Shown here piece by piece: positions 28,239 through 64,000 of a stretch of 64,000 nt of DNA. This stretch comes from a virus. The stretch lies in IMG/VR virus record IMGVR_UViG_3300025704_000015, positions 1 through 64,000 of that record; one strand, written 5' to 3'. Position numbers and translations under genes: made by a program. The notes beneath the pieces are model-generated. The model worked only from the letters and a program-made list of their open reading frames with translations. It made no database searches and was not told where the DNA came from. Each line of letters begins with the position of its first letter. Within the stretch, counting starts at the first letter, position 1.

Positions 28239-28592
28239 ATGAGTACTGAGAAATATTTGTTACCAAACGAGAAGAAGCGTTTAGATGAAGAAACATTATC
28301 TGAAGCTAAAGTGCCATCTGACTATTTAGATTTCCAAAGCGATGATAAAAGTTATAAAGTTTATCAAGCAGATAATAATGGAGAATCTTCTGTAAGACCC
28401 GCCGAAAAGGCAAGTAAAAATTGGCCGACTGGTGCTCCAGTAACTAAGACTTTTAAAAAAGTTTCATCTGCTCCAATTCCAAAAGGTGAGTTCTGGGTTT
28501 TAGAATCTGATAAAAGTTTTTATTGGATGGTTAACGGCACTTGGTATTCGATCAGTAAAAAAGACCATCCCCGCCCACCATTTGATTATTAA
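28239..28592 (+). CDS. putative internal head protein, MSTEKYLLPNEKK leader family copy 2
   Basis: Shared leader followed by LDEETLSEA. Confidence 0.7.
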   Translation: MSTEKYLLPNEKKRLDEETLSEAKVPSDYLDFQSDDKSYKVYQADNNGESSVRPAEKASKNWPTGAPVTKTFKKVSSAPIPKGEFWVLESDKSFYWMVNGTWYSISKKDHPRPPFDY

Positions 28593-30015: not shown

Positions 30016-32544
30016 ATGAAGAACAGCATTAGTGGATTCTACACCAGCGTCGATAGACACATGAACATGATTAAGTATCGAGGATACGATCATGATGGCA
30101 AAAAAATATATGATTCATTTAAATATCGGCCAACGCTTTATGTAAATAGCAAAGACCGTAACTCAGAATGGAAAGCGATTGATGGAACTCCTGTAGGCCC
30201 AATGCAGTTTGGCACTATGAGCGAATGCCGCCAGTTCTGTAAACATTATGAAGATGTTCCTTCGTTTAAAATATATGGAAATGAAAAGCATGTTCCAGCA
30301 TTTATCCAAAGCCAGTGGCCTGGCGAAATTGAGTATGATAAAAAGATGGTCGACATTCTTTACATCGATATTGAAACTGCTATTGGTACAGGCTTTCCAG
30401 AACCAATGCGAGCAGAACAAGAGATTCTTACAATCGCAGTAAAGAGTAGCCGTTGTGATACTTATATCATCTGGGGACTAAAGGATTATGACCTTTCTAA
30501 AAGTGAAGTGCCACATCTTAGAAAAGAGTATCGCCAGTTTGATACTGAAACCGAACTCTTAAATGATTTTCTAGATTGGTGGAGTGATCCTATTAATACT
30601 CCAGATGTTATCACTGGTTGGAATACAGAGTTCTTTGATATTCCTTACATCGTTAATAGAATAGCTCGTATGTTGGGCAACGATGCAACCAAGCGATTAT
30701 CTCCTTGGAAAAAAATTACAGATAGAACCGTAAATGTATTTGGCCGTGAGCAAACCAGCTATAACATTATGGGTATTCAACAACTCGATTACCTTGACTT
30801 ATTTAAAAAGTTTACTCTTAATACTTATGGCCAACAAGAATCATATAAGCTAGATAATATTGCCGAGGTTGTTCTTGAACAAAAGAAGCTAGCTTTTGAA
30901 GGCGATCTAAAAGAATTATATGAACAAGATTTTCAGAAGTTTGTTGATTATAATATCGTTGATGTTGAATTGATTGAACTGTTTGAAAAGAAACTTGGCT
31001 TAATTGATTTGGTATTTACTCTAGCATATTTTGGCGGAGTTAATTATACAGATACGCTCGGTACTGTTTCTATATGGGATAGTATAATCTTTAGGAATCT
31101 TGCTAAAAAGAAAATAGCGATTCCTCCATCAAAACCAAGTGCTAAAGCAGAATATGCTGGAGGGTTTGTTAAGCCAGTTGTGCCAGGGATGTATGATTGG
31201 GTAATGAGCTTCGATTTGAACAGCTTGTATCCTAACCTTATTATACAATATAATATGAGTCCTGAGACCCTCGTAAGGCATTCTACAGTGCCTAATATTA
31301 CACCTGATCGAGTACTCGAAGATCAAACAAACATATCCCCTGACAGTAATTTGGCGGTTGCCGCAAATGGCGCAACATTTAGTAGACATAAGCAAGGGTT
31401 TCTACCAGAGATTATTGAAGAGCTTTATAATAAGCGTAAGAAGATTAAAGCAGAAATGCTAGATAAAAAGAAAGAGAATGAAAAGCAAAAAAGTAAGATA
31501 TTAGACTCAGAAATCGCCAGACTTGAAACTGAACAAATGGCGATCAAGATTCTAATGAACAGCCTGTATGGAGCTTTGGCTAACAGATGGTTCCGTTACT
31601 TTGATCTTCTTGTTGCTGAAGGAATTACTCTTACAGGTCAACTTGTTATTCGTTGGGCAGAACAACATGCAAACAAATGGTTATCTTCATTCCTTAAAGA
31701 TGAGAAGCCAGTTGATAGAGTTATAGCAGCAGACACTGACTCCATTTACGTTAATGTTCAAGATGTAATTGATAAGCTTAATCCAAAAAGTCCAGTTGAG
31801 TTTCTTGATAAGTTTGGTGAAGAAGGTATGGTTCCTGCATTGGAAAAAGCTTTTAATAAGTTAGGCGGTATTACAAATTCATATAAGAATACGATGGTGA
31901 TGGCGCGAGAAGCTATTGCTGATAAAGCTATATGGACTGCAAAGAAACGATATATTTTAAATGTTCTTAACAATGAAGGTGTTCAATATGCTGAGCCGAA
32001 AATTAAGATCATGGGTATTGAAGCTATTAAGAGTTCTACTCCAAAAGTATGTCGAGGCGCTATGAAGGAAATGTTTAAAGTAATGATGAGCGGGGATGAA
32101 GATAAAACTCAAAAAGCGATCGCTTTCTTTCATAACCACTTTAATTCTTTGCCGGCCCATGAAATCGCAAGTCCTCGTGGAATTAATAATGTTACAAAAT
32201 ATTATGATTCACAAACTCTATATTGTAAAGGAACACCAATGCATTGCCGCGCGGCCTTAGTATATAACGATCAGTTAAAGAAGTTTAACTTAACTAATAA
32301 GTATAGGGAAATCCAAGGCGGCAATAAAATTAAGTTTGTATTTCTTAAAAAGCATAACCCAACTGGAGAAAACGTAATTGGGTTTATTGATAAGTTGCCA
32401 CACGAATTTGGTTTAGATAAGTTCATTGATTATGAAACTCAATTCCAAAAAGCTTTCCTTGATCCAATTAATCTTATCTTACATGCTATTAGTTGGTCGG
32501 CAGAACCTCAAGCTAGTTTGGAAGACTTCTTTGGGCAAGTATAG
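30016..32544 (+). CDS. gp43: family B DNA polymerase gp43
   Basis: Exo I DIET, SFDLNSLYP, KILMNSLYGAL, ADTDS, KKRY; clamp-binding SLEDFF tail. Confidence 0.97.
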   Translation: MKNSISGFYTSVDRHMNMIKYRGYDHDGKKIYDSFKYRPTLYVNSKDRNSEWKAIDGTPVGPMQFGTMSECRQFCKHYEDVPSFKIYGNEKHVPAFIQSQWPGEIEYDKKMVDILYIDIETAIGTGFPEPMRAEQEILTIAVKSSRCDTYIIWGLKDYDLSKSEVPHLRKEYRQFDTETELLNDFLDWWSDPINTPDVITGWNTEFFDIPYIVNRIARMLGNDATKRLSPWKKITDRTVNVFGREQTSYNIMGIQQLDYLDLFKKFTLNTYGQQESYKLDNIAEVVLEQKKLAFEGDLKELYEQDFQKFVDYNIVDVELIELFEKKLGLIDLVFTLAYFGGVNYTDTLGTVSIWDSIIFRNLAKKKIAIPPSKPSAKAEYAGGFVKPVVPGMYDWVMSFDLNSLYPNLIIQYNMSPETLVRHSTVPNITPDRVLEDQTNISPDSNLAVAANGATFSRHKQGFLPEIIEELYNKRKKIKAEMLDKKKENEKQKSKILDSEIARLETEQMAIKILMNSLYGALANRWFRYFDLLVAEGITLTGQLVIRWAEQHANKWLSSFLKDEKPVDRVIAADTDSIYVNVQDVIDKLNPKSPVEFLDKFGEEGMVPALEKAFNKLGGITNSYKNTMVMAREAIADKAIWTAKKRYILNVLNNEGVQYAEPKIKIMGIEAIKSSTPKVCRGAMKEMFKVMMSGDEDKTQKAIAFFHNHFNSLPAHEIASPRGINNVTKYYDSQTLYCKGTPMHCRAALVYNDQLKKFNLTNKYREIQGGNKIKFVFLKKHNPTGENVIGFIDKLPHEFGLDKFIDYETQFQKAFLDPINLILHAISWSAEPQASLEDFFGQV

Positions 32545-47918: not shown

Positions 47919-49499
47919 TTAATCTTCGACCCAAACCGCGGCCAAAGATACTCGAGCAAGACTTTCAGTTGATTGCACAATAAATGAAATGCTGCTATTT
48001 GGTGGAACTACAATTCTTAGATCCCCAAGATTAATCGAAGAACTTCCCCCGCCAGGTACTTCAAACATGTAAATTGGCAGATTGTTGTCAACTGTTGTGC
48101 TTACATCTCCTATAGTATCTGAATAATATACAGATGAATTTTCCTCGCTTCTTGTGTTATACTCAAGCTCAGGTAATCCATTAAAATTATAATATACTGA
48201 TACAAGTACAGGCGTTCCAGCTGGATTTGTTAAGAATGCCGAATTAATATTTTTTAATAAAACTTCTCTAGTATTAATTTTATTCTTATAAATTAATCTA
48301 TTATGTAAAGTTAATACATGATGATAATCATCTGCAGATAAGTTAGGGTTTTCATCATATGTAATTGATGTAGCAGTTGGCAGTTTTGTATTTTCTATTA
48401 AACCTTCAATTGCGCCTAACATAGAACCACCTGATACATAAATATCAGTTCCAGTTCCACCTAAACTTGCAGCAATCCATCCAACCTTTAACGATGGGTT
48501 ATCAACGTGAACATCATCATAATTATTTGCATATTTTATTTCATGGAAAACAATCATGTCTCCATTTAACGGGTTTTCAATAGAGAATCTAATTTGCCCA
48601 GCACCAAGCCATCTAAAATTAATTTGGAAAACGTTTAATTTAGTTGGATTTAATATTGCTCTACTATAACCATTACCATCAAGAGTATCACCATTAAAGT
48701 CTTCTTGGTATGTCCAATTATTAGTATGATTTACACCACCTTGAAGAACTGAAAGAGTAGCAGTAACGCCAGTTGAATCTGTATCAGAAAAAGAAAATGT
48801 TCCGGTTTTAGGCCCAACCCCAGTTGATAAAAAACAAACTTTATCAGCAACATATTCTAAAATCCAAAAATCACTTATAATACCATGATGTATTTTTCTT
48901 GCCACATCATTGGCAGTATCTCCTGCTAAGACTGCAATAACAAAATCTTCATCATTTAATGTTACGGTAATATTTCCAGATGTTGTGGCTGAATTACTAA
49001 TAACAATATTATGAATATGGGCTTTACCTTTATTCTGTAAAAGAACTCCAAATTTATCACCATCAAAGCCAACCTGTATAGCTTGCTCTTGCGCAAAGAA
49101 TCCCGCTCTTTGAGTATAACCGATGGCTCCTTCTGTAAATTGAGCAGTGAACCGTGTTAACGCGCCCTGCCCTGGTCTATATCTTACTGCTCTTTTTGAT
49201 CTAATAACGCCATAACCACCCAATGAAGTTCCGGTTCTACATTCTAGTAAAGTGTTTGAGGCTATTGCAGATCCACTCTCAGATTCATAAGACTCAAATA
49301 GTCTTTCATCTAAACCATATAAACCATCCAATTGAAATACCGGCGTAATAGGAACACTCACATGTTCTCCAAATACGCTTACTGCTGAAGCGCTTGATGT
49401 TTTAACTGGATTACCATATTCATCAACCGCTAATGACGCCTCAAAAAGCGAGGTATTATCATTAAGATAATTTTGAGAGGTTCTATTCCACTGGGCCAT
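47919..49499 (-). CDS. late beta-rich protein, probably virion structural (start probably 49499)
   Basis: Minus-strand TATAAATA ends 5 nt before the ATG; RYRPGQG and WLGAG motifs; Gly/Thr/Asn-rich. Confidence 0.65.
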   Translation of the reverse strand: MAQWNRTSQNYLNDNTSLFEASLAVDEYGNPVKTSSASAVSVFGEHVSVPITPVFQLDGLYGLDERLFESYESESGSAIASNTLLECRTGTSLGGYGVIRSKRAVRYRPGQGALTRFTAQFTEGAIGYTQRAGFFAQEQAIQVGFDGDKFGVLLQNKGKAHIHNIVISNSATTSGNITVTLNDEDFVIAVLAGDTANDVARKIHHGIISDFWILEYVADKVCFLSTGVGPKTGTFSFSDTDSTGVTATLSVLQGGVNHTNNWTYQEDFNGDTLDGNGYSRAILNPTKLNVFQINFRWLGAGQIRFSIENPLNGDMIVFHEIKYANNYDDVHVDNPSLKVGWIAASLGGTGTDIYVSGGSMLGAIEGLIENTKLPTATSITYDENPNLSADDYHHVLTLHNRLIYKNKINTREVLLKNINSAFLTNPAGTPVLVSVYYNFNGLPELEYNTRSEENSSVYYSDTIGDVSTTVDNNLPIYMFEVPGGGSSSINLGDLRIVVPPNSSISFIVQSTESLARVSLAAVWVED

Positions 49500-49527
49500 A
49501 CTTTTATTTATACAAATAAATAACTTT

Positions 49528-49962
49528 ATGAAGAGGATACGGGTATATGGTTGTTTGGACAAACCTAAGTTAAAAAAAGAAATACGTGAAGCTGCGTCTC
49601 TTTTTATTCAAGATCTTTTACCACGTAAACGCAAGTATGATATAACAATAACAATATCTTCAGGTTTATCTAAAAAAGTAGGATCCTTTGGAGAATGCTG
49701 GTCATGGTCTCGTAATGAATATACAGTTAAGATCGACGGATCTCAAACAAAGGAAAATATTTTTAAAACACTTGCTCATGAATTTGTACACGTTAAACAA
49801 TTCTCAGTTGGAGAATTAAAATTCTTAACTAAATTTGATGTTTGGCAAGGAACCGTATATTACCATGGAGCTAAATACGAAACTCTTCCATGGGAAAGGG
49901 AAGCAACTCAATATGAAAAAATTCTATATAACAAACATATTGTCAATAAAAGACAATTATAA
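49528..49962 (+). CDS. zincin-like metallopeptidase
   Basis: LAHEFVHVKQ and PWEREA motifs. Confidence 0.75.
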   Translation: MKRIRVYGCLDKPKLKKEIREAASLFIQDLLPRKRKYDITITISSGLSKKVGSFGECWSWSRNEYTVKIDGSQTKENIFKTLAHEFVHVKQFSVGELKFLTKFDVWQGTVYYHGAKYETLPWEREATQYEKILYNKHIVNKRQL

Positions 49963-53471: not shown

Positions 53472-55346
53472 ATGAAAAAACTAACAGATATTTTAGAAAA
53501 CAAAAATGTTATCTTAGACGAGAATAGCGACGCTAGCTTAGAAATCCTATTAAACGAAGCCGAGGCAAAACCGCCAGAAAATACTGACGTTGGTATTGTT
53601 CTTTCAAGACTATCAGATATGATTTCAATGTCAGATGATTTGTATGATACTGCATCTTCCCTTGAAGAAATTGATAAGGAAACCGCCGATACTGTTGAAT
53701 CCACATATAATTCTATTGATGAGTTATACGCGATGTTTGATGATAAGTATGATATCTTTAGATCTGATTTTGATATGGGAGATATTGAAATGGATGAAGA
53801 TTTCCGTATTAGTTTAGATGATCTATTAAATGAAGCAACTGATGAGTTATCAGAAGCATTTTTACGTTTGCCTGGCCATTTTATTAATAATGAATTATAT
53901 GGAGTAGAACGAGATCTTAATACTTTTATTAAGGGTTTGCAAAATGGTAATGATGTTAATATGAAAGAGCTTAATAAAATCATTAAGATATTACAAAGCG
54001 CTAAGAAGGAAGTTAAGAAATTCAATAAGCCTGAAGATGTTCCTGTTAGTTTTCAATATAAAAAAGAATCTATTGACATTAATGAGTATTTCTCTAAAGC
54101 TGACTTGAAACTTATTGATAAGATGTATGACAAGAAGGGTAACCTTACTCCATTCGGAAGAAAGGTAATGAATCATGGTAAGAAGCCAGGTGATAAAGGT
54201 TATATCGAAGAAGCAACCCGTCGAAACCAAGGGCTTACTGATTTATTCCATAACCTTGCTGCAGTTGAAAGACAACTACGTCCTAACAGCCCTATTCACA
54301 GGTTAGTTGAAAAGACTGCTGAGGGTAATTATACTGCAGAATTTAAGAAGATGCAAAAATTGGTTGCTCCTCTTGTTAAAATGTGGGATGACATTGAAGC
54401 GGACTTAGACACAGACTACCCTCGTGAATCTATTGAAGAAGCTGGAGGTGATTGGGTTGTCGTTGATTTAAATACTAAGAAGGTTACGTATGTTAAATCA
54501 TATGACGCTGCTTCAAAGTATGTGAAGAAGAACGGTGGAGTAATTGCAAGCGCTGAATATTATGTTGATAACAAAAAGAAGTTTGAAGATACCTCGTTTG
54601 AAGGAGAGCCTCTTGATGAAGCAAAACAAAAAACAATTGAGGAAGACAAGTATACTGATCTTGGTTTAAGCGTATCCCATACTCTAAACATGGCTCAAAC
54701 CTTTTGGTATAAGTTAGGCGGTAAAGCTCAAATTGATCAAAAGAAATATGCTAAGCTTGAAGCTGATTATGTTAAAAGAGGTAAAGTAAAAGTAAAGCTT
54801 GATGATATTGGTAAAGTTACATTCAAGAATGTAACACACCATCTGACATTTAAAGATAAGAGTAAAGCAATGTTCCACGTTTCTGATAAACCTGGCACAC
54901 CAACCGTAATCGGAAACTTCGATGCTCTTGGTGTTAACGGTAAGCGCGGTAATATGTTCCATTCTGCTATTAAAGATAGAGATCTTGATTTAACATTTAC
55001 AGAATCCATCGAAGAAGCCGTTTCTAGTTCAGCACTTTCCATTCTAAAGAAGGTCGGTTTTAAAGAAGCTCCAGTAGATAAGACAACAACAAAGGTCGTT
55101 AATTCTCTTTCTGGTAAAAAACTTAAACTGACTCAACTGTTTGGTATATCAATGCGAGCTGGTAAGTGGGCCGATATCTTTGTCGGGACTACCGAAGATG
55201 GCAAATATTTTGTGGTTGATCCATCTGGAACTACTATCTTTAATAAAGAATCTGAGTTAGTAACTGCTTTAAAGTCTGCCGCACTTGGTGAATCTATCAA
55301 CCATTTTTTAAAGGGTGGTAAAGACCTTAATGACATCGTTGGTTAA
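53472..55346 (+). CDS. multi-module putative internal head polyprotein
   Basis: Repeated L/I-x-E-A linkers (LLNEA x2, LSEA, IEEA, ESIEEA x2, LDEA) separate unrelated segments. Confidence 0.6.
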   Translation: MKKLTDILENKNVILDENSDASLEILLNEAEAKPPENTDVGIVLSRLSDMISMSDDLYDTASSLEEIDKETADTVESTYNSIDELYAMFDDKYDIFRSDFDMGDIEMDEDFRISLDDLLNEATDELSEAFLRLPGHFINNELYGVERDLNTFIKGLQNGNDVNMKELNKIIKILQSAKKEVKKFNKPEDVPVSFQYKKESIDINEYFSKADLKLIDKMYDKKGNLTPFGRKVMNHGKKPGDKGYIEEATRRNQGLTDLFHNLAAVERQLRPNSPIHRLVEKTAEGNYTAEFKKMQKLVAPLVKMWDDIEADLDTDYPRESIEEAGGDWVVVDLNTKKVTYVKSYDAASKYVKKNGGVIASAEYYVDNKKKFEDTSFEGEPLDEAKQKTIEEDKYTDLGLSVSHTLNMAQTFWYKLGGKAQIDQKKYAKLEADYVKRGKVKVKLDDIGKVTFKNVTHHLTFKDKSKAMFHVSDKPGTPTVIGNFDALGVNGKRGNMFHSAIKDRDLDLTFTESIEEAVSSSALSILKKVGFKEAPVDKTTTKVVNSLSGKKLKLTQLFGISMRAGKWADIFVGTTEDGKYFVVDPSGTTIFNKESELVTALKSAALGESINHFLKGGKDLNDIVG

Positions 55347-59461: not shown

Positions 59462-59467
59462 AATAAA

Positions 59468-59668
59468 ATGACAACAGACAAATATAGATGTATTAAGTGT
59501 AAAATTTCTTACGACGTCTTTTGGGACGATCATGTTGAGATTTATTATTCAGGAGTAGAAGACACTGACGAAGACATCAGTGACTTAACTGAATGCCACG
59601 AACCTGAGCATTGCCCATTCTGCGGATCTCACCTTCATGACGATATGGTTAGTGATTTTGATGAATAA
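59468..59668 (+). CDS. small zinc-ribbon protein
   Basis: CIKC and CPFCG. Confidence 0.7.
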   Translation: MTTDKYRCIKCKISYDVFWDDHVEIYYSGVEDTDEDISDLTECHEPEHCPFCGSHLHDDMVSDFDE

Positions 59669-59730
59669 ATGCATTTTCCTCTTATTTTAAGGAAAGCTGG
59701 GGTATAATATCCCATTATTATTTGGTCTTC

Positions 59731-59815
59731 AAACCCTTATTCTACGGGGGTTCCAGAACAAAATGCACATTTTGTGAATTATTTTATTTACAAATGTGCC
59801 TTTTTATGGTATAAT
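59731..59815 (+). promoter_or_regulatory. early promoter with conserved upstream element (copy 2)
   Basis: Near-identical to 20808-20869; TTTACA at 59787 and TATAAT at 59810. Confidence 0.85.
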
Positions 59816-59861
59816 ATAACTACAGAGAGGGACACCAACCAACCCGATCAACCACCACAAA

Positions 59862-60086
59862 ATGTACAAATACACTTATACCGAACACCAGCAGAATCCC
59901 CCTTCACTTGGAGGCGATTGGGAATGCGGCACCGAGACCACGATCTGCTTCTCAAGAAGCCCAAAGAAGGCATGCAGCCTTAAGGGTATCGTTTCCCGCA
60001 AATTCGAGGGCGCTGACGGGTGTCCAATCATGAGCTCCGAAAAGCTCGAGTTTAACGGTAAGGTCATTTTCGATCGCACTCACTAA
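59862..60086 (+). CDS. early hypothetical protein
   Basis: First ATG downstream of the early promoter. Confidence 0.6.
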   Translation: MYKYTYTEHQQNPPSLGGDWECGTETTICFSRSPKKACSLKGIVSRKFEGADGCPIMSSEKLEFNGKVIFDRTH

Positions 60087-60101
60087 TAACCAAAAACGAC
60101 C

Positions 60102-60182
60102 ATGATTCATATAGCCGAACTTTTTACCGCCATTCTCATCCTCGCCGCATCATTCATTACTTTGATCGCTTTCACGGCCTAA
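60102..60182 (+). CDS. 26-aa single-TM peptide
   Basis: MIHIAELFTAILILAASFITLIAFTA read directly. Confidence 0.45.
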   Translation: MIHIAELFTAILILAASFITLIAFTA

Positions 60183-60202
60183 CCACAACCAACTAATATA
60201 TT

Positions 60203-60451
60203 ATGACAATAAAACCAAATCGCACTCACTGCTACAGATTTACTGTAGAGATGGACAATGAAGAAGATATGAAATCTCTGGCCACGTTCAGAAAATCATT
60301 CTATGGGACTAACCAATATGTAAAATGTCAAGGCCGTTGGGGTGAGAATAACCCCAATTATAAAAGAAGCCACAACTTCCTAGGACATTCGAGATCGTTC
60401 TGCCCAGTTTCACTCGCCAAATATTGCGACGTTTATGTTTACTTTCGATAA
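60203..60451 (+). CDS. early hypothetical protein
   Basis: ORF track; packed operon. Confidence 0.65.
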   Translation: MTIKPNRTHCYRFTVEMDNEEDMKSLATFRKSFYGTNQYVKCQGRWGENNPNYKRSHNFLGHSRSFCPVSLAKYCDVYVYFR

Positions 60452-60454
60452 GAT

Positions 60455-60541
60455 ATGAATTTAATAAGAATCACTCTTATGATGTTAGCCTGTACCGTCT
60501 GTTGGTACTGGTCAGTGAGATTAGTTTTAATAATTTTTTAA
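60455..60541 (+). CDS. 28-aa hydrophobic peptide
   Basis: MNLIRITLMMLACTVCWYWSVRLVLIIF read directly. Confidence 0.4.
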   Translation: MNLIRITLMMLACTVCWYWSVRLVLIIF

Positions 60542-60542
60542 G

Positions 60543-60758
60543 ATGAAACCAAACCTATTACAAAAACTATTAACCCAATTTCCTAACACTCAAAATGTTG
60601 AAATTCGTGGTGAGATTCAAAGTGTTCCAGAACTAACCGAGGAAAACTTTTGGACCTTAATTAAAAGCCACAACGAACTTGTTGAAAAGTTCAATTACGC
60701 CATTCACAACCTAAATGCAGAGTGCGAAGAACTAAGAAATAAACTAAATCAAAAATAA
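60543..60758 (+). CDS. early hypothetical protein (coiled coil)
   Basis: ORF track. Confidence 0.6.
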   Translation: MKPNLLQKLLTQFPNTQNVEIRGEIQSVPELTEENFWTLIKSHNELVEKFNYAIHNLNAECEELRNKLNQK

Positions 60759-60775
60759 AAACCATTAATTATATT

Positions 60776-60994
60776 ATGAAAAAAACAACCAGCGCTAAAT
60801 TCGAAAAACTGAAAGCCAATATTGCTAAACTTGAACTTCAAAAGGGAGATAAAACTAACTTTGGCTCAGTTGTTAAAGTAGGCGAAACAGGAATCACTTT
60901 TAAGAATACATACTCACCAAAGACAAGAATCCTGTTTATCCAACGCAAGTTTGGAAGAAACGAATATGTATTGAATGACCTAATTAAACTTTAA
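60776..60994 (+). CDS. early hypothetical protein
   Basis: ORF track. Confidence 0.6.
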   Translation: MKKTTSAKFEKLKANIAKLELQKGDKTNFGSVVKVGETGITFKNTYSPKTRILFIQRKFGRNEYVLNDLIKL

Positions 60995-60996
60995 TT

Positions 60997-61170
60997 ATGA
61001 AAGAAACAAATTACACTACAAACATTAAGGCCGGTGATTCTGTGATGGTTAACGGTATGCAAATTATCGTTAATGAGAATTGCGGAAACGGCTGCTTTTA
61101 TGGAACAGATTGTGATGGCGATGAGATCGAATTCGCCACCGAAGAAATCTTAGCAGTTGTTCCAGATTAA
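60997..61170 (+). CDS. 57-aa hypothetical protein (SH3-like beta pattern)
   Basis: Read directly: MKETNYTTNIKAGDSVMVNG...EEILAVVPD. Confidence 0.55.
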   Translation: MKETNYTTNIKAGDSVMVNGMQIIVNENCGNGCFYGTDCDGDEIEFATEEILAVVPD

Positions 61171-61179
61171 TATAATAAT

Positions 61180-61377
61180 ATGGAAAAGATAGAAGAGCTA
61201 AAACAAAAGTATATTTTTGACCGTTTGGAATGCCTTAAGTGGGATTCAAAATATTACAAATATAAAAACACAAAGCTATCATCAGAGCTTGAAAAGAGCG
61301 AAGCTAAGCTCGTTGATATTTTAAAAGAGATTCGTGAACTTGAAAGTCTCCGTGTTAGACCAAAGAAAAATAAATAA
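61180..61377 (+). CDS. hypothetical protein
   Basis: ORF track; ends just before the RNA gene. Confidence 0.55.
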   Translation: MEKIEELKQKYIFDRLECLKWDSKYYKYKNTKLSSELEKSEAKLVDILKEIRELESLRVRPKKNK

Positions 61378-61380
61378 AAC

Positions 61381-61449
61381 GGGGGTGTAAAAGAATTCGA
61401 CGCTAGTTTCGGCTAACGGACCCGGGCGCGATACCCGGCACCTCCACCA
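61381..61449 (+). ncRNA. minimal tmRNA-like RNA (tRNA-like domain only, Ala identity, encoded CCA)
   Basis: Acceptor stem GGGGGTG/CACCTCC with G3-U, ACCA end, tmRNA-like 5' loop ending TTCGAC, T-arm CCGGG/CCCGG, short UUCG hairpin in place of the MLD. Confidence 0.78.
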
Positions 61450-61457
61450 TTTAAAAT

Positions 61458-61497
61458 AAAAAACCCGCTCTGAATTAAACCAGGGCGGGTGTTTTTC
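61458..61497. terminator. bidirectional terminator between converging operons
   Basis: ACCCGCTCTG...CAGGGCGGGT flanked by A- and T-runs. Confidence 0.8.
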
Positions 61498-61513
61498 TAA
61501 ATATATATATATC

Positions 61514-61867
61514 TTACTTAACGTTTGGCTCGTCTTTTTCTGTTGAGTATTCTGCTAAAAACTCTCTTAATTCATTAATGTCATTTGCGTTTAAGCTCAT
61601 AAATGTTCTTCGGGCCGCACCAGATGTGCGGCTTTCACTAACCTTTTCAATCTCTAAACATTTACGAGTGCCTAACTTTGATTCCAATTCATCAGGGCCA
61701 ATAAATTCAAGAAGCTTAAACGTGGAATTTGCATGTGTTCCTCCATCTTCCCATCCAGCCAATTCGGTTTTTTCAAGCAGAACCTTTGCTTCTTCTTTAA
61801 TGGGTTTACCCTCAAGAATCGCCTTCGCGGCATCTTCAAGTTCTTTATTTTTGTTTGATAGATTCAT
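61514..61867 (-). CDS. putative internal head protein, MNLSNK leader family
   Basis: MNLSNKNKELEDAAKAILEG; cargo similar to 62739-63044. Confidence 0.7.
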   Translation of the reverse strand: MNLSNKNKELEDAAKAILEGKPIKEEAKVLLEKTELAGWEDGGTHANSTFKLLEFIGPDELESKLGTRKCLEIEKVSESRTSGAARRTFMSLNANDINELREFLAEYSTEKDEPNVK

Positions 61868-61870
61868 ATA

Positions 61871-62209
61871 TTAAATTTTTTCTATTGAAGTAATGTTTGG
61901 ATAGTTTGGTTTATTACTTAGAACTACTTTAACTTTATCTCCTGCTTTATACTTCTTACTAAGCTTTGGATCAAACCCAAATTCAGCTTTCATGCCGCTC
62001 TTGTTTTTCTTGTCATGACCTTTGAAAGTCATAACCCATGCTTTGCCAAACTTACCAGGCGATCTTTGAACTTGTGAAACGCTAGAAATTGTAAGATCCA
62101 ATTCCTTTCCGAGATTCTTATTAAGAAAATCATCGTGAATAATTGCATTCTCACTCATAATTGCCTTTGCCGCTTCTTCAAGGCTGTTATTTCTATTTGA
62201 TAAATTCAT
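61871..62209 (-). CDS. putative internal head protein, MNLSNK leader family (OB-fold-like cargo)
   Basis: MNLSNRNNSLEEAAKAIMSE; KAGDKVKV...YPNITSI beta pattern. Confidence 0.7.
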   Translation of the reverse strand: MNLSNRNNSLEEAAKAIMSENAIIHDDFLNKNLGKELDLTISSVSQVQRSPGKFGKAWVMTFKGHDKKNKSGMKAEFGFDPKLSKKYKAGDKVKVVLSNKPNYPNITSIEKI

Positions 62210-62742
62210 TATTTTCCAAAGTACTGGGTTTGTAGAATTTTACCAATTGCTTTGATAAGATCTTTACCGTCAGCATTAGCTTCCCAGTCTTTAATAGCAT
62301 CTTTGTATGTGGAATGGTTCATGGCATCTTTTAAATATTCAACATCATTAGCAAGACCTTCAAACATCTTTGCAGCTTGGGTTTTTACCGTGCCTTTTAA
62401 TTTTGCTTCATCAAGTTCAATGCTTTCAACAATTTTACCTTTACTTAAATCTAAGATGGTTGGATAACCAATTTCCTTTGAAGTGCTTCTGTTAAACTCT
62501 GCTGCATGTTGCCTCGCTTTCTCAAGGGTTGGCGCAGTATGATAAATCTGACCTTTGTTATTAAATATATAGAAATTGTTTTTTGATTTAGTTGTCTTGG
62601 CAGTATCAATCATTTTATCAAGACTTGCAGAGCCATTTCGAACTGCCTTCCAGTTTGATCCTCTAGTAGCACCGTAACCATATCCTTCAAGGATTCCCCT
62701 TGCAGCATCCTCTAATGCTTGACTTTTATTTGATAAGTTCAT
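62209..62742 (-). CDS. putative internal head protein, MNLSNK leader family (two modules)
   Basis: MNLSNKSQALEDAARGILEG; internal ESIELDEA linker. Confidence 0.7.
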   Translation of the reverse strand: MNLSNKSQALEDAARGILEGYGYGATRGSNWKAVRNGSASLDKMIDTAKTTKSKNNFYIFNNKGQIYHTAPTLEKARQHAAEFNRSTSKEIGYPTILDLSKGKIVESIELDEAKLKGTVKTQAAKMFEGLANDVEYLKDAMNHSTYKDAIKDWEANADGKDLIKAIGKILQTQYFGK

Positions 62743-63044
62743 TTTAAAGAAATCTTCTTTAGATTTTTAATAAGAATTTCAAGATCACGCGCATTCAATT
62801 CAATATATTTTTTACCAATCGTGATTTGTACCATTTTACGATTTCCAATCTGACCATGCCCAAGCTCGGCGGGTCCAGTAAATTGTGTTAATTCGGCATA
62901 TTCTTTACCACTTTTACCCGCGCTTGTCCAAGCTTTAATTTTAGTAGCTTCACTCAGCTCTTCGGTTTCAAGCTCCTCATAAGTTCCTTCAAGGATTCCC
63001 CTTGCAGCATCCTCTATCGTTTTACTTTTATTTGATAAGTTCAT
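62739..63044 (-). CDS. putative internal head protein, MNLSNK leader family
   Basis: MNLSNKSKTIEDAARGILEG...LSEA. Confidence 0.7.
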   Translation of the reverse strand: MNLSNKSKTIEDAARGILEGTYEELETEELSEATKIKAWTSAGKSGKEYAELTQFTGPAELGHGQIGNRKMVQITIGKKYIELNARDLEILIKNLKKISLK

Positions 63045-63050
63045 TGTGTT

Positions 63051-63392
63051 TTATTTTTTTAAATATGAAGACCATGAACTCCATTCTGGAGCATCGTTGG
63101 TATTTGAATATTGATTTGATTTTAATTTGTCTTGTTGATCTAATTGAGATTTTTTACCGTTGGTTACCATAAACGCGAATTTTTCTTTGGTATTAACAGC
63201 GAATAAACCGGCGGGTAATGAAACTAAAAAGGTTCCTTTTGGTAATTCAACATACCCTTGAGATGAGAATTGTAAACCATTGCTTGATTGGCCATCACGA
63301 AAACTCGCTGGTTTTTTATTATATTTTACTTCGGCACTTTTGGTTAATACAAACCCTGTTGCTTCTGAAATAAAGTGTTTAAATGAAATCAT
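63051..63392 (-). CDS. protein with CTS-like leader MISFKHFISEA
   Basis: Late promoter at 63410-63417 (minus strand). Confidence 0.7.
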   Translation of the reverse strand: MISFKHFISEATGFVLTKSAEVKYNKKPASFRDGQSSNGLQFSSQGYVELPKGTFLVSLPAGLFAVNTKEKFAFMVTNGKKSQLDQQDKLKSNQYSNTNDAPEWSSWSSYLKK

Positions 63393-63421
63393 AATTTTAG
63401 TTGTATTGTTATTTATAAAAG

Positions 63422-63793
63422 TTAATCCTTTTCCAAATCCGCTTCACGTGTTTTCTTAGACATCTTAATAGCCCAATCGACACCAGCATCGCCACCCCAA
63501 CCTAGCCAGGCCATATATCCATTATCTGTCCATGGGCGGTCTTTCTTTTCAGGGGAAATTTTAGAGTTTTTTCTATGCCTATTAAATGATGCCATTCTTT
63601 TTAATATATCATAAGAGATCTCATCTCCATCAGCAAGTTGGCGAGCTCTTACCCATCCAGTGCGAGTCATTGCTTTAACTTCATTAGGGTATTGCTCTTT
63701 CCATTTAATAGCTTTTTTCGCTGCGGCAACCGCACCAGCAGGAGGCTGAAACTTTCTTTCTTCCTCTTTAATAAAATCTTTAAACGGGATCAT
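63422..63793 (-). CDS. conserved phage domain protein with CTS-like leader MIPFKDFIKEE
   Basis: GWVRARQL...KRMASF.RH...AWLGWGGDAG motif; late promoter at 63802-63809. Confidence 0.72.
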   Translation of the reverse strand: MIPFKDFIKEEERKFQPPAGAVAAAKKAIKWKEQYPNEVKAMTRTGWVRARQLADGDEISYDILKRMASFNRHRKNSKISPEKKDRPWTDNGYMAWLGWGGDAGVDWAIKMSKKTREADLEKD

Positions 63794-63832
63794 ATTAATG
63801 TTATTTATAATGTTGTATATATAAATTAGAAA

Positions 63833-64000
63833 ATGAAGAGTGATTGGACATATGAAGGTAAAGAGTTTACAACTGAGATGATCGAGGATTATGTTGGATT
63901 TGTTTACTTGGTAACTTTTGATGATGGAATGAAATACATCGGAAAAAAACGGTTTTGGAGTAAGGTGACTCGCCCTCCGTTAAAAGGAAAGAAAAGAAAG
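63833..64000 (+). CDS. GIY-YIG-like protein, truncated by the window end
   Basis: MKSDWTYEG...GFVYLV...KYIGKK read directly. Confidence 0.6.
   Translation, partial: MKSDWTYEGKEFTTEMIEDYVGFVYLVTFDDGMKYIGKKRFWSKVTRPPLKGKKRK

Follow-up and report, generated by a model that had tools for sequence, protein, structure and literature searches.

A 69-nt TLD-only tmRNA gene in a marine T4-like phage

The locus downstream of nrdA

The window analysed here comprises positions 1 to 64,000 of IMG/VR virus record IMGVR_UViG_3300025704_000015, which is itself 79.7 kb long (79,754 bases) and represents a fragment of a marine T4-like myovirus with 35% G+C and a CheckV completeness of about 44%. The record encodes a terminase, sheath, portal, gp43-type polymerase, gp46-like nuclease and nrdAB. 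Among cultured phages, its nearest relatives are C48C1, Melnitz, Pelagibacter phage Mosig and cyanophages, with only 46-50% identity in polymerase and portal. A 4.4-kb stretch (59463-63844) that separates nrdA from the next conserved gene carries six small plus-strand ORFs, a 69-nt RNA gene and six minus-strand ORFs. The features around and within the RNA gene, which we describe below as a tmRNA tRNA-like domain (TLD), are the following.

59787..59815, plus strand: sigma-70-type promoter-like site, TTTACA, 17-nt spacer, TATAAT, with TG (11 of 12 consensus matches)
59862..61377, plus strand: six small ORFs (57-82 aa) with no assigned function, directly upstream of the RNA
61381..61449, plus strand: TLD-only (CDS-less) tmRNA gene, 69 nt (direct reading, RF00023, model R1)
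61381..61387, plus strand: acceptor stem 5' strand GGGGGUG, holding G3 of G3:U70 (RF00023 alignment; stem 99.3% paired in the family)
61388..61400, plus strand: stemless 13-nt D-region UAAAAGAAUUCGA, ending in AAUUCGA, with an AG dinucleotide (positions 18/19) and the conserved UUCGA (RF00023 alignment)
61401..61418, plus strand: P2-like hairpin of 7 positions (6 pairs and one C.A mismatch) with a UUCG tetraloop
61419..61421, plus strand: conserved GAC (part of GGAC) 5' of the T-arm (RF00023 alignment)
61422..61438, plus strand: T-arm CCGGG / CGCGAUA / CCCGG, 5-bp stem and 7-nt loop
61439..61449, plus strand: acceptor 3' strand CACCUCC (U70), discriminator A73 and encoded CCA (direct reading, RF00023)
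61463..61497, no strand assigned: intrinsic terminator, 10-bp G+C-rich hairpin with an A-run before and a U-run after (-19.2 kcal/mol, z -4.98)

The last upstream stop codon ends 3 nt before the 5' G of the RNA. The promoter-like site is a lead only for joint transcription of the RNA with the six small ORFs, since such sites are no more numerous here than shuffled sequence would predict. An earlier note on this sequence had spoken of an early operon, for which this upstream site speaks and nothing else. None of the 13 neighbouring small ORFs matches a PHROG or Pfam family above threshold. The ORF at 60543-60758 has a weak similarity over 43 residues to ribosome recycling factor (RRF), with 14.4 bits (cut-off 29.7, E 0.034), which was rejected as chance in a helical stretch.

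The terminator that the same note placed 3' of the RNA is confirmed. Its hairpin (61463-61490), followed by the U-tract, starts thirteen nt past the CCA, and the element serves the convergent gene clusters of both strands. The terminator hairpin is reverse-complemented in sister strains (L002) and in a diverged relative (L003), the stem being the same and the loop flipped, so that a small palindromic segment appears to be inverted between otherwise collinear genomes. Metatranscriptome contigs (X15-X18) span the locus, such contigs being unable to show transcription or ends; one of 1.9 kb continues through the terminator into the convergent genes and may be DNA.

Further upstream in the window, a 624-aa plus-strand ORF (53472-55346) has no Pfam family and no PHROG match. 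A 547-aa minus-strand ORF with a TTG start (47919-49562), also without a Pfam family, stands alone on its strand within a plus-strand block and may not be a real gene.

A tmRNA tRNA-like domain without an mRNA-like domain

Direct reading of the plus strand at 61381-61449 bears out the earlier letter-by-letter description, including the G3-U wobble and the A discriminator (GGGGGUG/CACCUCC, with ACCA encoded). The RNA thus carries the AlaRS identity set: a 7-bp acceptor stem, G3:U70, A73 and a 3' CCA, G3:U70 being the established identity rule of AlaRS. In the RF00023 alignment, the sequence of the SmpB-binding elbow, AUUCGACG and CGGAC, matches the consensus exactly. The T-loop reads CGCGAUA and not the canonical UUCGAUU, with U54 and U55 absent; it belongs to a G55-C56 class that is the partner of a D-loop AG and is found in genuine alpha_tmRNAs. 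Only 18 nt separate the two TLD halves, and the P2-like hairpin that they form occupies the place of the pseudoknots and tag ORF. No element of an mRNA-like domain (MLD), be it resume codon, tag ORF, stop codon or pseudoknots, was found inside the 69 nt.

The Rfam tmRNA model RF00023 aligns to the 69 nt over model positions 1-374 with 308 middle positions deleted, scoring 46.2 bits (E 1.3e-16 with 2 kb searched), and the same RNA is its single match over the whole record (E 1.2e-18). This score lies 0.8 bits under the gathering cut-off of 47 bits because of the 308 deleted positions. A search of Rfam at gathering threshold accordingly gives no match at 61381-61449, and ARAGORN reports 0 genes in the 64-kb window and in the whole record; both blanks are detection limits and no evidence against the gene. 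A covariance model built from 19 viral family sequences with the 69-nt RNA itself left out (R1) gives it 57.6 bits (E 1.7e-11 over 752 kb), within the 35-93 bits of other family members. On five alphaproteobacterial genomes the best R1 matches are tRNAs, none above 31 bits.

The tRNA model RF00005 has no match to the RNA at E<=10. The D-stem and the anticodon arm with 7-nt loop of a tRNA are absent, the central loop being the 4-nt UUCG. No register of the central hairpin yields a 7-nt loop, in agreement with the earlier note's remark that there is no anticodon loop, or an Ala anticodon. On these grounds, and given the retained tmRNA-specific UUCGAC and GGAC, a D-arm-less tRNA-Ala is very improbable. 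An attachment-site remnant was ruled out as well, the TLD 5' half being present and paired and the phage T4-like. Among other tmRNA models, the mitochondrial RF02544 reaches 12.9 bits at 61414-61511 (cut-off 65), and a permuted-tmRNA model matches the T-arm and acceptor strand only, plus a chance pairing with the terminator. Because of the end-to-end RF00023 match, the independent R1 model and the family-wide covariation described below, we conclude that 61381-61449 is a tmRNA TLD without an MLD, and not a tRNA. The earlier proposal that the whole MLD has been swapped for a UUCG hairpin is thereby supported, and the possibility it raised of a better score as a tRNA did not materialise.

Taken as a single sequence, the RNA favours another internal pairing, with a minimum free energy of -25.8 kcal/mol compared with -22.1 kcal/mol for the TLD fold (a gap of 3.7 kcal/mol); the TLD helices have less than 1% probability in the single-sequence folding model, and the z-score is only -1.56. 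The alternative pairing is not conserved, since the minimum free energy structure of the L003 RNA is essentially the TLD fold. What the analysis shows is thus the TLD identity of the RNA, its fold on comparative grounds, its conservation and the host-like character of its T-arm.

A family of TLD-only RNAs in viral contigs

Conserved homologues, which the earlier note had suggested looking for, were found among IMG/VR viral contigs with a pattern requiring GGGG, TTCGAC, GGAC and TCCACCA in order, with at most 38 nt in the middle. At least 117 contigs match, yielding at least 92 distinct sequences of 64-85 nt, one of them a chance match. In a 97-row alignment, 97.9% of the cells are paired, against 68.8% after shuffling and 47-55% with slid partners, and double changes occur at 18 of the 20 pairs. 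By helix, pairing and double changes amount to 99.3% and five of seven pairs for the acceptor stem, 95.8% and all six pairs for P2, and 100% and all five pairs for the T-stem.

Covariation extends to the contact between D-loop positions 18/19 and T-loop positions 55/56. GG occurs with UUC in 43 sequences and with UCC in 5, AG with NGC in 30 (of 31 with AG), and GA with UUU in 10, the last being an A19:U56 Watson-Crick swap of G19:C56. The association of AG with G55 gives a Fisher p of 9e-22, a value inflated by shared ancestry. The 69-nt RNA (AG, CGC) is of the AG/NGC type, a class that it fits only with one extra A after the AG; R1 aligns it in this one-base-insertion register, and the same arrangement is seen in two other members (L028, L047). 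This sequence covariation argues that a tRNA-like elbow has been kept.

The first pattern forced G3 and U70, and the scan was repeated with positions 3 and 70 left free. It returned three further structured members, register-shifted and with C4:G69 or U4:A69, all of which have G3:U70. Among the matches listed, G3:U70 is thus present in 91 of 91 counted structured members and in the three register-shifted ones, and no other 3:70 pair was found among them; pairs 4-7, the T-stem and P2 vary freely. Unvarying G3:U70 is the pattern that selection for AlaRS charging would give.

The longer members show architectures of their own. In a 76-77-nt class (L029, L039, L051, L073 and similar loci), P2 is a 6-bp stem closed by a conserved 15-nt loop with a consensus near CAAAGGUUAACUCAC; members of the 80-85-nt class have UAAA, after which comes a small inner hairpin. 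Weak extra R1 matches resembling tRNA genes lie 0.5-3 kb from the TLD-only genes of four loci (L103, L052, L081, L036), and the mini-tmRNA of other phages may therefore sit within tRNA clusters.

Conservation in close relatives and probable gain in an accessory region

The 5' half of the 69-nt RNA is found exactly in seven IMG/VR contigs. Six come from sister strains and carry the identical RNA; the remaining one, L003, has diverged, with flanks 75-82% identical and an RNA identical at 66 of 69 positions (96%). The three changes in the L003 RNA comprise a compensatory replacement of C-G by U-A at the first T-stem pair and one change at the P2 mismatch. L003 lacks the last upstream ORF (61180-61377) and retains the RNA and the terminator. 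In all, the homologues of the exact variant amount to 9 contigs with 2 sequence variants, and the exact T-arm variant occurs in the same 9 only, direct covariation for it depending on L003 alone. Decay is unlikely because the RNA is 96% conserved while the flanks are 75-82% identical, and because of the compensatory change. Judged by this pattern of sequence conservation, 61381-61449 is a real RNA gene under selection.

Synteny was followed through nrdA at 80 loci. No such RNA was found within 4 kb downstream of nrdA in relatives with nrdA at or below 80% protein identity. Five aligned distant relatives show no similarity past nrdA, and L130 has about 200 nt in place of the entire 59.5-63.8 kb stretch. 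Since distant relatives are without this stretch, the RNA gene belongs to a variable, accessory part of the genome, bounded by nrdA and the next conserved gene. Relatives with about 69-71% DNA identity in nrdA have nothing that corresponds to the 59463-63844 segment, which looks like a hyperplastic accessory region.

A related T4-like phage with nrdA 74% identical (L047/L172, IMGVR_UViG_3300017780_006957, 110 kb) has another TLD-only gene, 72 nt long and at a different genomic position, with acceptor GGGGCAU and T-loop GGCAGUU. As this gene differs in place and in sequence, the gain or exchange of TLD-only genes seems not to be tied to the phage backbone.

Partner genes and host lineage

Several genes that might accompany such an RNA were searched for in the 79.7-kb record, which holds about 44% of the genome. 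Searches of the record and of five near-identical sister contigs, which continue further at either end, yielded no SmpB (PF01668), no second tmRNA and no permuted coding piece; the separately encoded MLD piece considered in the earlier note is thus absent from these sequences. The record also yielded no RF-1/ArfB-like domain (PF00472) and no tRNA genes.

Megablast of 2 kb of sequence against GenBank phages gave no match. With the 69-mer as query, the GenBank phage matches are only tmRNAs of phages of Alphaproteobacteria, namely Rhodobacter phage RcSimone-Hastad (T-loop UGCGAUA) and Sphingobium phage Lacusarx. The genome of RcSimone-Hastad (MW677525.1; L336 in our set) contains an alpha-type permuted two-piece tmRNA gene at about 32150-32540 on the minus strand (RF01849, 97.7 bits; RF04321, 108.7 bits), in a stretch without annotated feature in the GenBank record.

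In some contigs from RNA runs, the match is confined to 61416-61449 and a 5' acceptor strand comes next, as in a permuted tmRNA gene. A first genome pattern, for a permuted gene with T-loop GCGAUA, gave no match. A scan of genomes for the permuted junction returned at least 120 contigs, nearly all Pelagibacteraceae, plus SAR116, OCS116 and Rhodobiaceae, whose genes are identified by Rfam as alpha_tmRNA with 210-243 bits. The G55-C56 T-loop, not forced by the pattern, is present in 120 of 120 of these contigs among the matches listed. Also among the matches listed is a class of 25 members that has the T-stem and acceptor strand of the phage RNA, with 30 of 32 nt identical. By sequence, the phage TLD resembles the TLD expected of a marine alphaproteobacterial host with a two-piece tmRNA, and the host's own tmRNA is probably of this two-piece, alphaproteobacterial kind. 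The phage TLD may go back to 're-permutation' of a two-piece gene or may descend from a one-piece ancestor.

A proposed role in host ribosome rescue

From its sequence features, the 69-nt RNA probably interferes with or short-circuits the rescue-and-tagging system of the host. The earlier note had suggested a decoy or a tag-less Ala donor as putative functions. We consider one form of this proposal the most likely and give it an even chance: an AlaRS-charged, SmpB-bound TLD would compete with the host tmRNA at stalled ribosomes. The unvarying G3:U70 and the host-like T-arm speak for it, as do the published inhibition of tmRNA by a DS6A-like RNA and the in vitro entry of a TLD fragment with SmpB into ribosomes, both cited below. 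RNase P would cut the 5' end out of the small-ORF transcript, and the 3' end would be trimmed to the encoded CCA. Host AlaRS would then alanylate the RNA through G3:U70 and A73, and host SmpB would bind it at the elbow formed by the D-loop, GGAC and T-arm. The resulting Ala-TLD.SmpB.EF-Tu complex would enter ribosomes stalled on broken or non-stop mRNA, rivalling the host tmRNA, and the nascent chain would be transferred to a TLD with no resume codon or tag ORF. Under this proposal the SsrA degradation tag would therefore not be added, and host rescue-and-tagging would be diverted or suppressed during infection. Against it stand the Rfam score under the gathering cut-off, the single-sequence preference for another pairing, the T-loop without U54 and U55, the D-loop AG that fits the covariation only with an inserted base, and the small number of direct homologues of the exact variant. 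In addition, according to the account in PMC4131195, inhibition by an RNA like that of mycobacteriophage DS6A did not need chargeability, which fits a sponge equally, and a tag-less TLD leaves ribosome release after transfer to be explained, no ArfB/RF-1-like or SmpB gene being found in the 79.7-kb record.

We hold it rather unlikely that the RNA is a pure SmpB sponge, which would titrate host SmpB (perhaps also AlaRS or EF-Tu) and switch trans-translation off with no need for charging or ribosome entry. Strong inhibition of E. coli tmRNA has been described for a TLD-only RNA of the DS6A kind (Mao et al. 2009, as cited in PMC4131195 and PMC11915505), whether chargeable or not and perhaps via SmpB titration (Mao et al. 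2009, as cited in PMC4131195); all SmpB-elbow sequence elements are retained in the present RNA, and no phage SmpB gene was found in the record or the five sister contigs. However, the E. coli inhibition was obtained by expression in a foreign host and not in infection, and a sponge needs neither the encoded CCA nor G3:U70, which is the sole 3:70 pair among the matches listed even in a scan that allowed any bases there and with neighbouring pairs that vary. The constancy of G3:U70 across a very diverse viral family points to a function requiring alanylation rather than to a passive sponge.

A productive rescue without tagging, or with alanine only, would also use the charged RNA, and we regard it as unlikely. 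Here the RNA would be a minimal factor that frees ribosomes on cut mRNAs and adds one or several alanines, and phage protein fragments and ribosomes would be recycled without a host MLD. The conserved G3:U70 among the family matches listed agrees with this. Precedents are the template-free polyalanine made in vitro by a TLD fragment that enters ribosomes with SmpB (Shimizu and Ueda 2006, as cited in PMC3929946), the retention of CDS-less tmRNAs alongside SmpB in the mitochondria of jakobids and in some plastids, and the existence of natural 2-aa Ala-Ala tags (both PMC11915505). On the other hand, the RNA has no stop codon and release would need another factor, no ArfB/RF-1-like gene being found in the 79.7-kb record, and what the account of PMC4131195 cites from living cells for an RNA of this kind is solely inhibition, not rescue.

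Quite unlikely, in our estimate, is a more specific history in which a 're-permuted' one-piece TLD was derived from a two-piece, alphaproteobacterial-type tmRNA of host or phage by duplication and loss of the coding part, and now acts as a device for template-free alanine tailing or tag-less rescue. Ala-TLD.SmpB would then enter non-stop ribosomes repeatedly, as in the in vitro polyalanine reaction, and a lytic marine phage would keep ribosomes free and truncated proteins untagged while host mRNA is destroyed.

Very improbable is a function not of the tmRNA type, such as a D-arm-less tRNA-Ala, a tRNA-like element involved in processing or stability or acting as a decoy (an operon-end signal for RNase P cleavage, or bait for defence nucleases that target tRNAs), or what is left of a full phage tmRNA in decay: the RNA does lie 3 nt after a stop codon at the operon 3' end, but the lack of a 7-nt anticodon loop and Ala anticodon in any register around the 4-nt UUCG, the blank RF00005 (E<=10) and ARAGORN searches and the retained UUCGAC and GGAC speak against it, as do, for a remnant, the 96% conservation against flanks of 75-82% and the compensatory change in L003.

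If competition by the charged TLD is true, phages would commonly manipulate ribosome rescue and protein tagging by means of an RNA of roughly 70 nt, and the 69-nt RNA would offer a natural minimal substrate for studies of SmpB, AlaRS and EF-Tu in trans-translation.

Comparison with known TLD-only and two-piece tmRNAs

Curated resources contain hardly any TLD-only tmRNAs: of the 97,179 sequences in the 2025 tmRNA database, 9 are classed as 'standard, no CDS', one of them from phage DS6A (PMC11915505). Standard annotation misses such genes, as the ARAGORN and Rfam-threshold blanks illustrate here. The earlier note knew of no phage example, a statement overtaken by the DS6A tmRNA, already classed as 'TLD only' by Hudson, Lau and Williams (PMC4131195) and included in the database (PMC11915505). 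With this precedent, the 69-nt RNA is a compact further case of a published type. What it adds is the presence of TLD-only tmRNAs also in lytic marine T4-like phages, an alphaproteobacterial-type elbow in a one-piece RNA that follows host-lineage-specific D-loop/T-loop pairing, and family-wide evidence for selection on what appears to be alanine identity.

The DS6A gene (tmRNA Website tmID 11587, 'Standard, no CDS'; JN698994, about 28478-28560) is detected by R1 at 42.4 bits. Like the 69-nt RNA, it is phage-encoded and in one piece, with G3:U70, a stemless D-loop, a short P2 hairpin and a T-arm; both have the TLD halves in standard order around a short hairpin without reading frame. DS6A differs in its length of about 83 nt, with a central part 20 nt larger, in GGUCGAC and GGCAC, in a UUCGAUU T-loop and in the lack of an encoded CCA, whereas the 69-nt RNA is UUCG-capped and has UUCGAC, GGAC and a CGCGAUA T-loop. 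DS6A is moreover a temperate actinophage whose host has a one-piece tmRNA, in contrast to the marine T4-like myovirus with its two-piece-like TLD.

A close match in sequence is alpha_tmRNA (RF01849) of marine Alphaproteobacteria. In some Pelagibacteraceae, SAR116 and OCS116, it has the same acceptor GGGGGUG/CACCUCC, and it shares the T-stem CCGGG/CCCGG, the G55-C56 T-loop and the AG of the D-loop, the 3' 32 nt being identical at 30 positions. The D-loop ends in GAUCGAC there and in UUCGAC in the 69-nt RNA. The alpha_tmRNA genes are circularly permuted, 290-400 nt long and provided with a tag ORF and pseudoknots, whereas the phage gene is in standard order, in one piece and without a coding part. 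Two-piece tmRNAs also occur in phages, among them Rhodobacter phage RcSimone-Hastad, Methylophilales phage Melnitz and Pelagibacter myophages, and marine T4-like phages with the complete two-piece form have been published (PMC9004378).

Organellar forms share the reduction to a TLD. The CDS-less tmRNA of jakobid mitochondria (RF02544; Jacob et al. 2004, as cited in PMC11915505) is a TLD with SmpB as presumed partner, as proposed for the 69-nt RNA, and the plastid forms of Mallomonadaceae, about 65 bp long, likewise consist of a TLD without tag reading frame (PMC11915505). Unlike the phage RNA, these forms are organellar and mostly permuted.

A counterpart in design is the TLD construct in the crystal structure of a T. 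thermophilus TLD-SmpB complex (PDB 2CZJ; Bessho et al. 2007), in which 5' 25 nt and 3' 34 nt are joined by UUCG (as described by Himeno and colleagues in PMC3929946). The phage RNA has the same architecture, with 27 nt, UUCG and 38 nt. The 2CZJ TLD is a laboratory construct made from a one-piece bacterial tmRNA, whereas the 69-nt RNA is natural.
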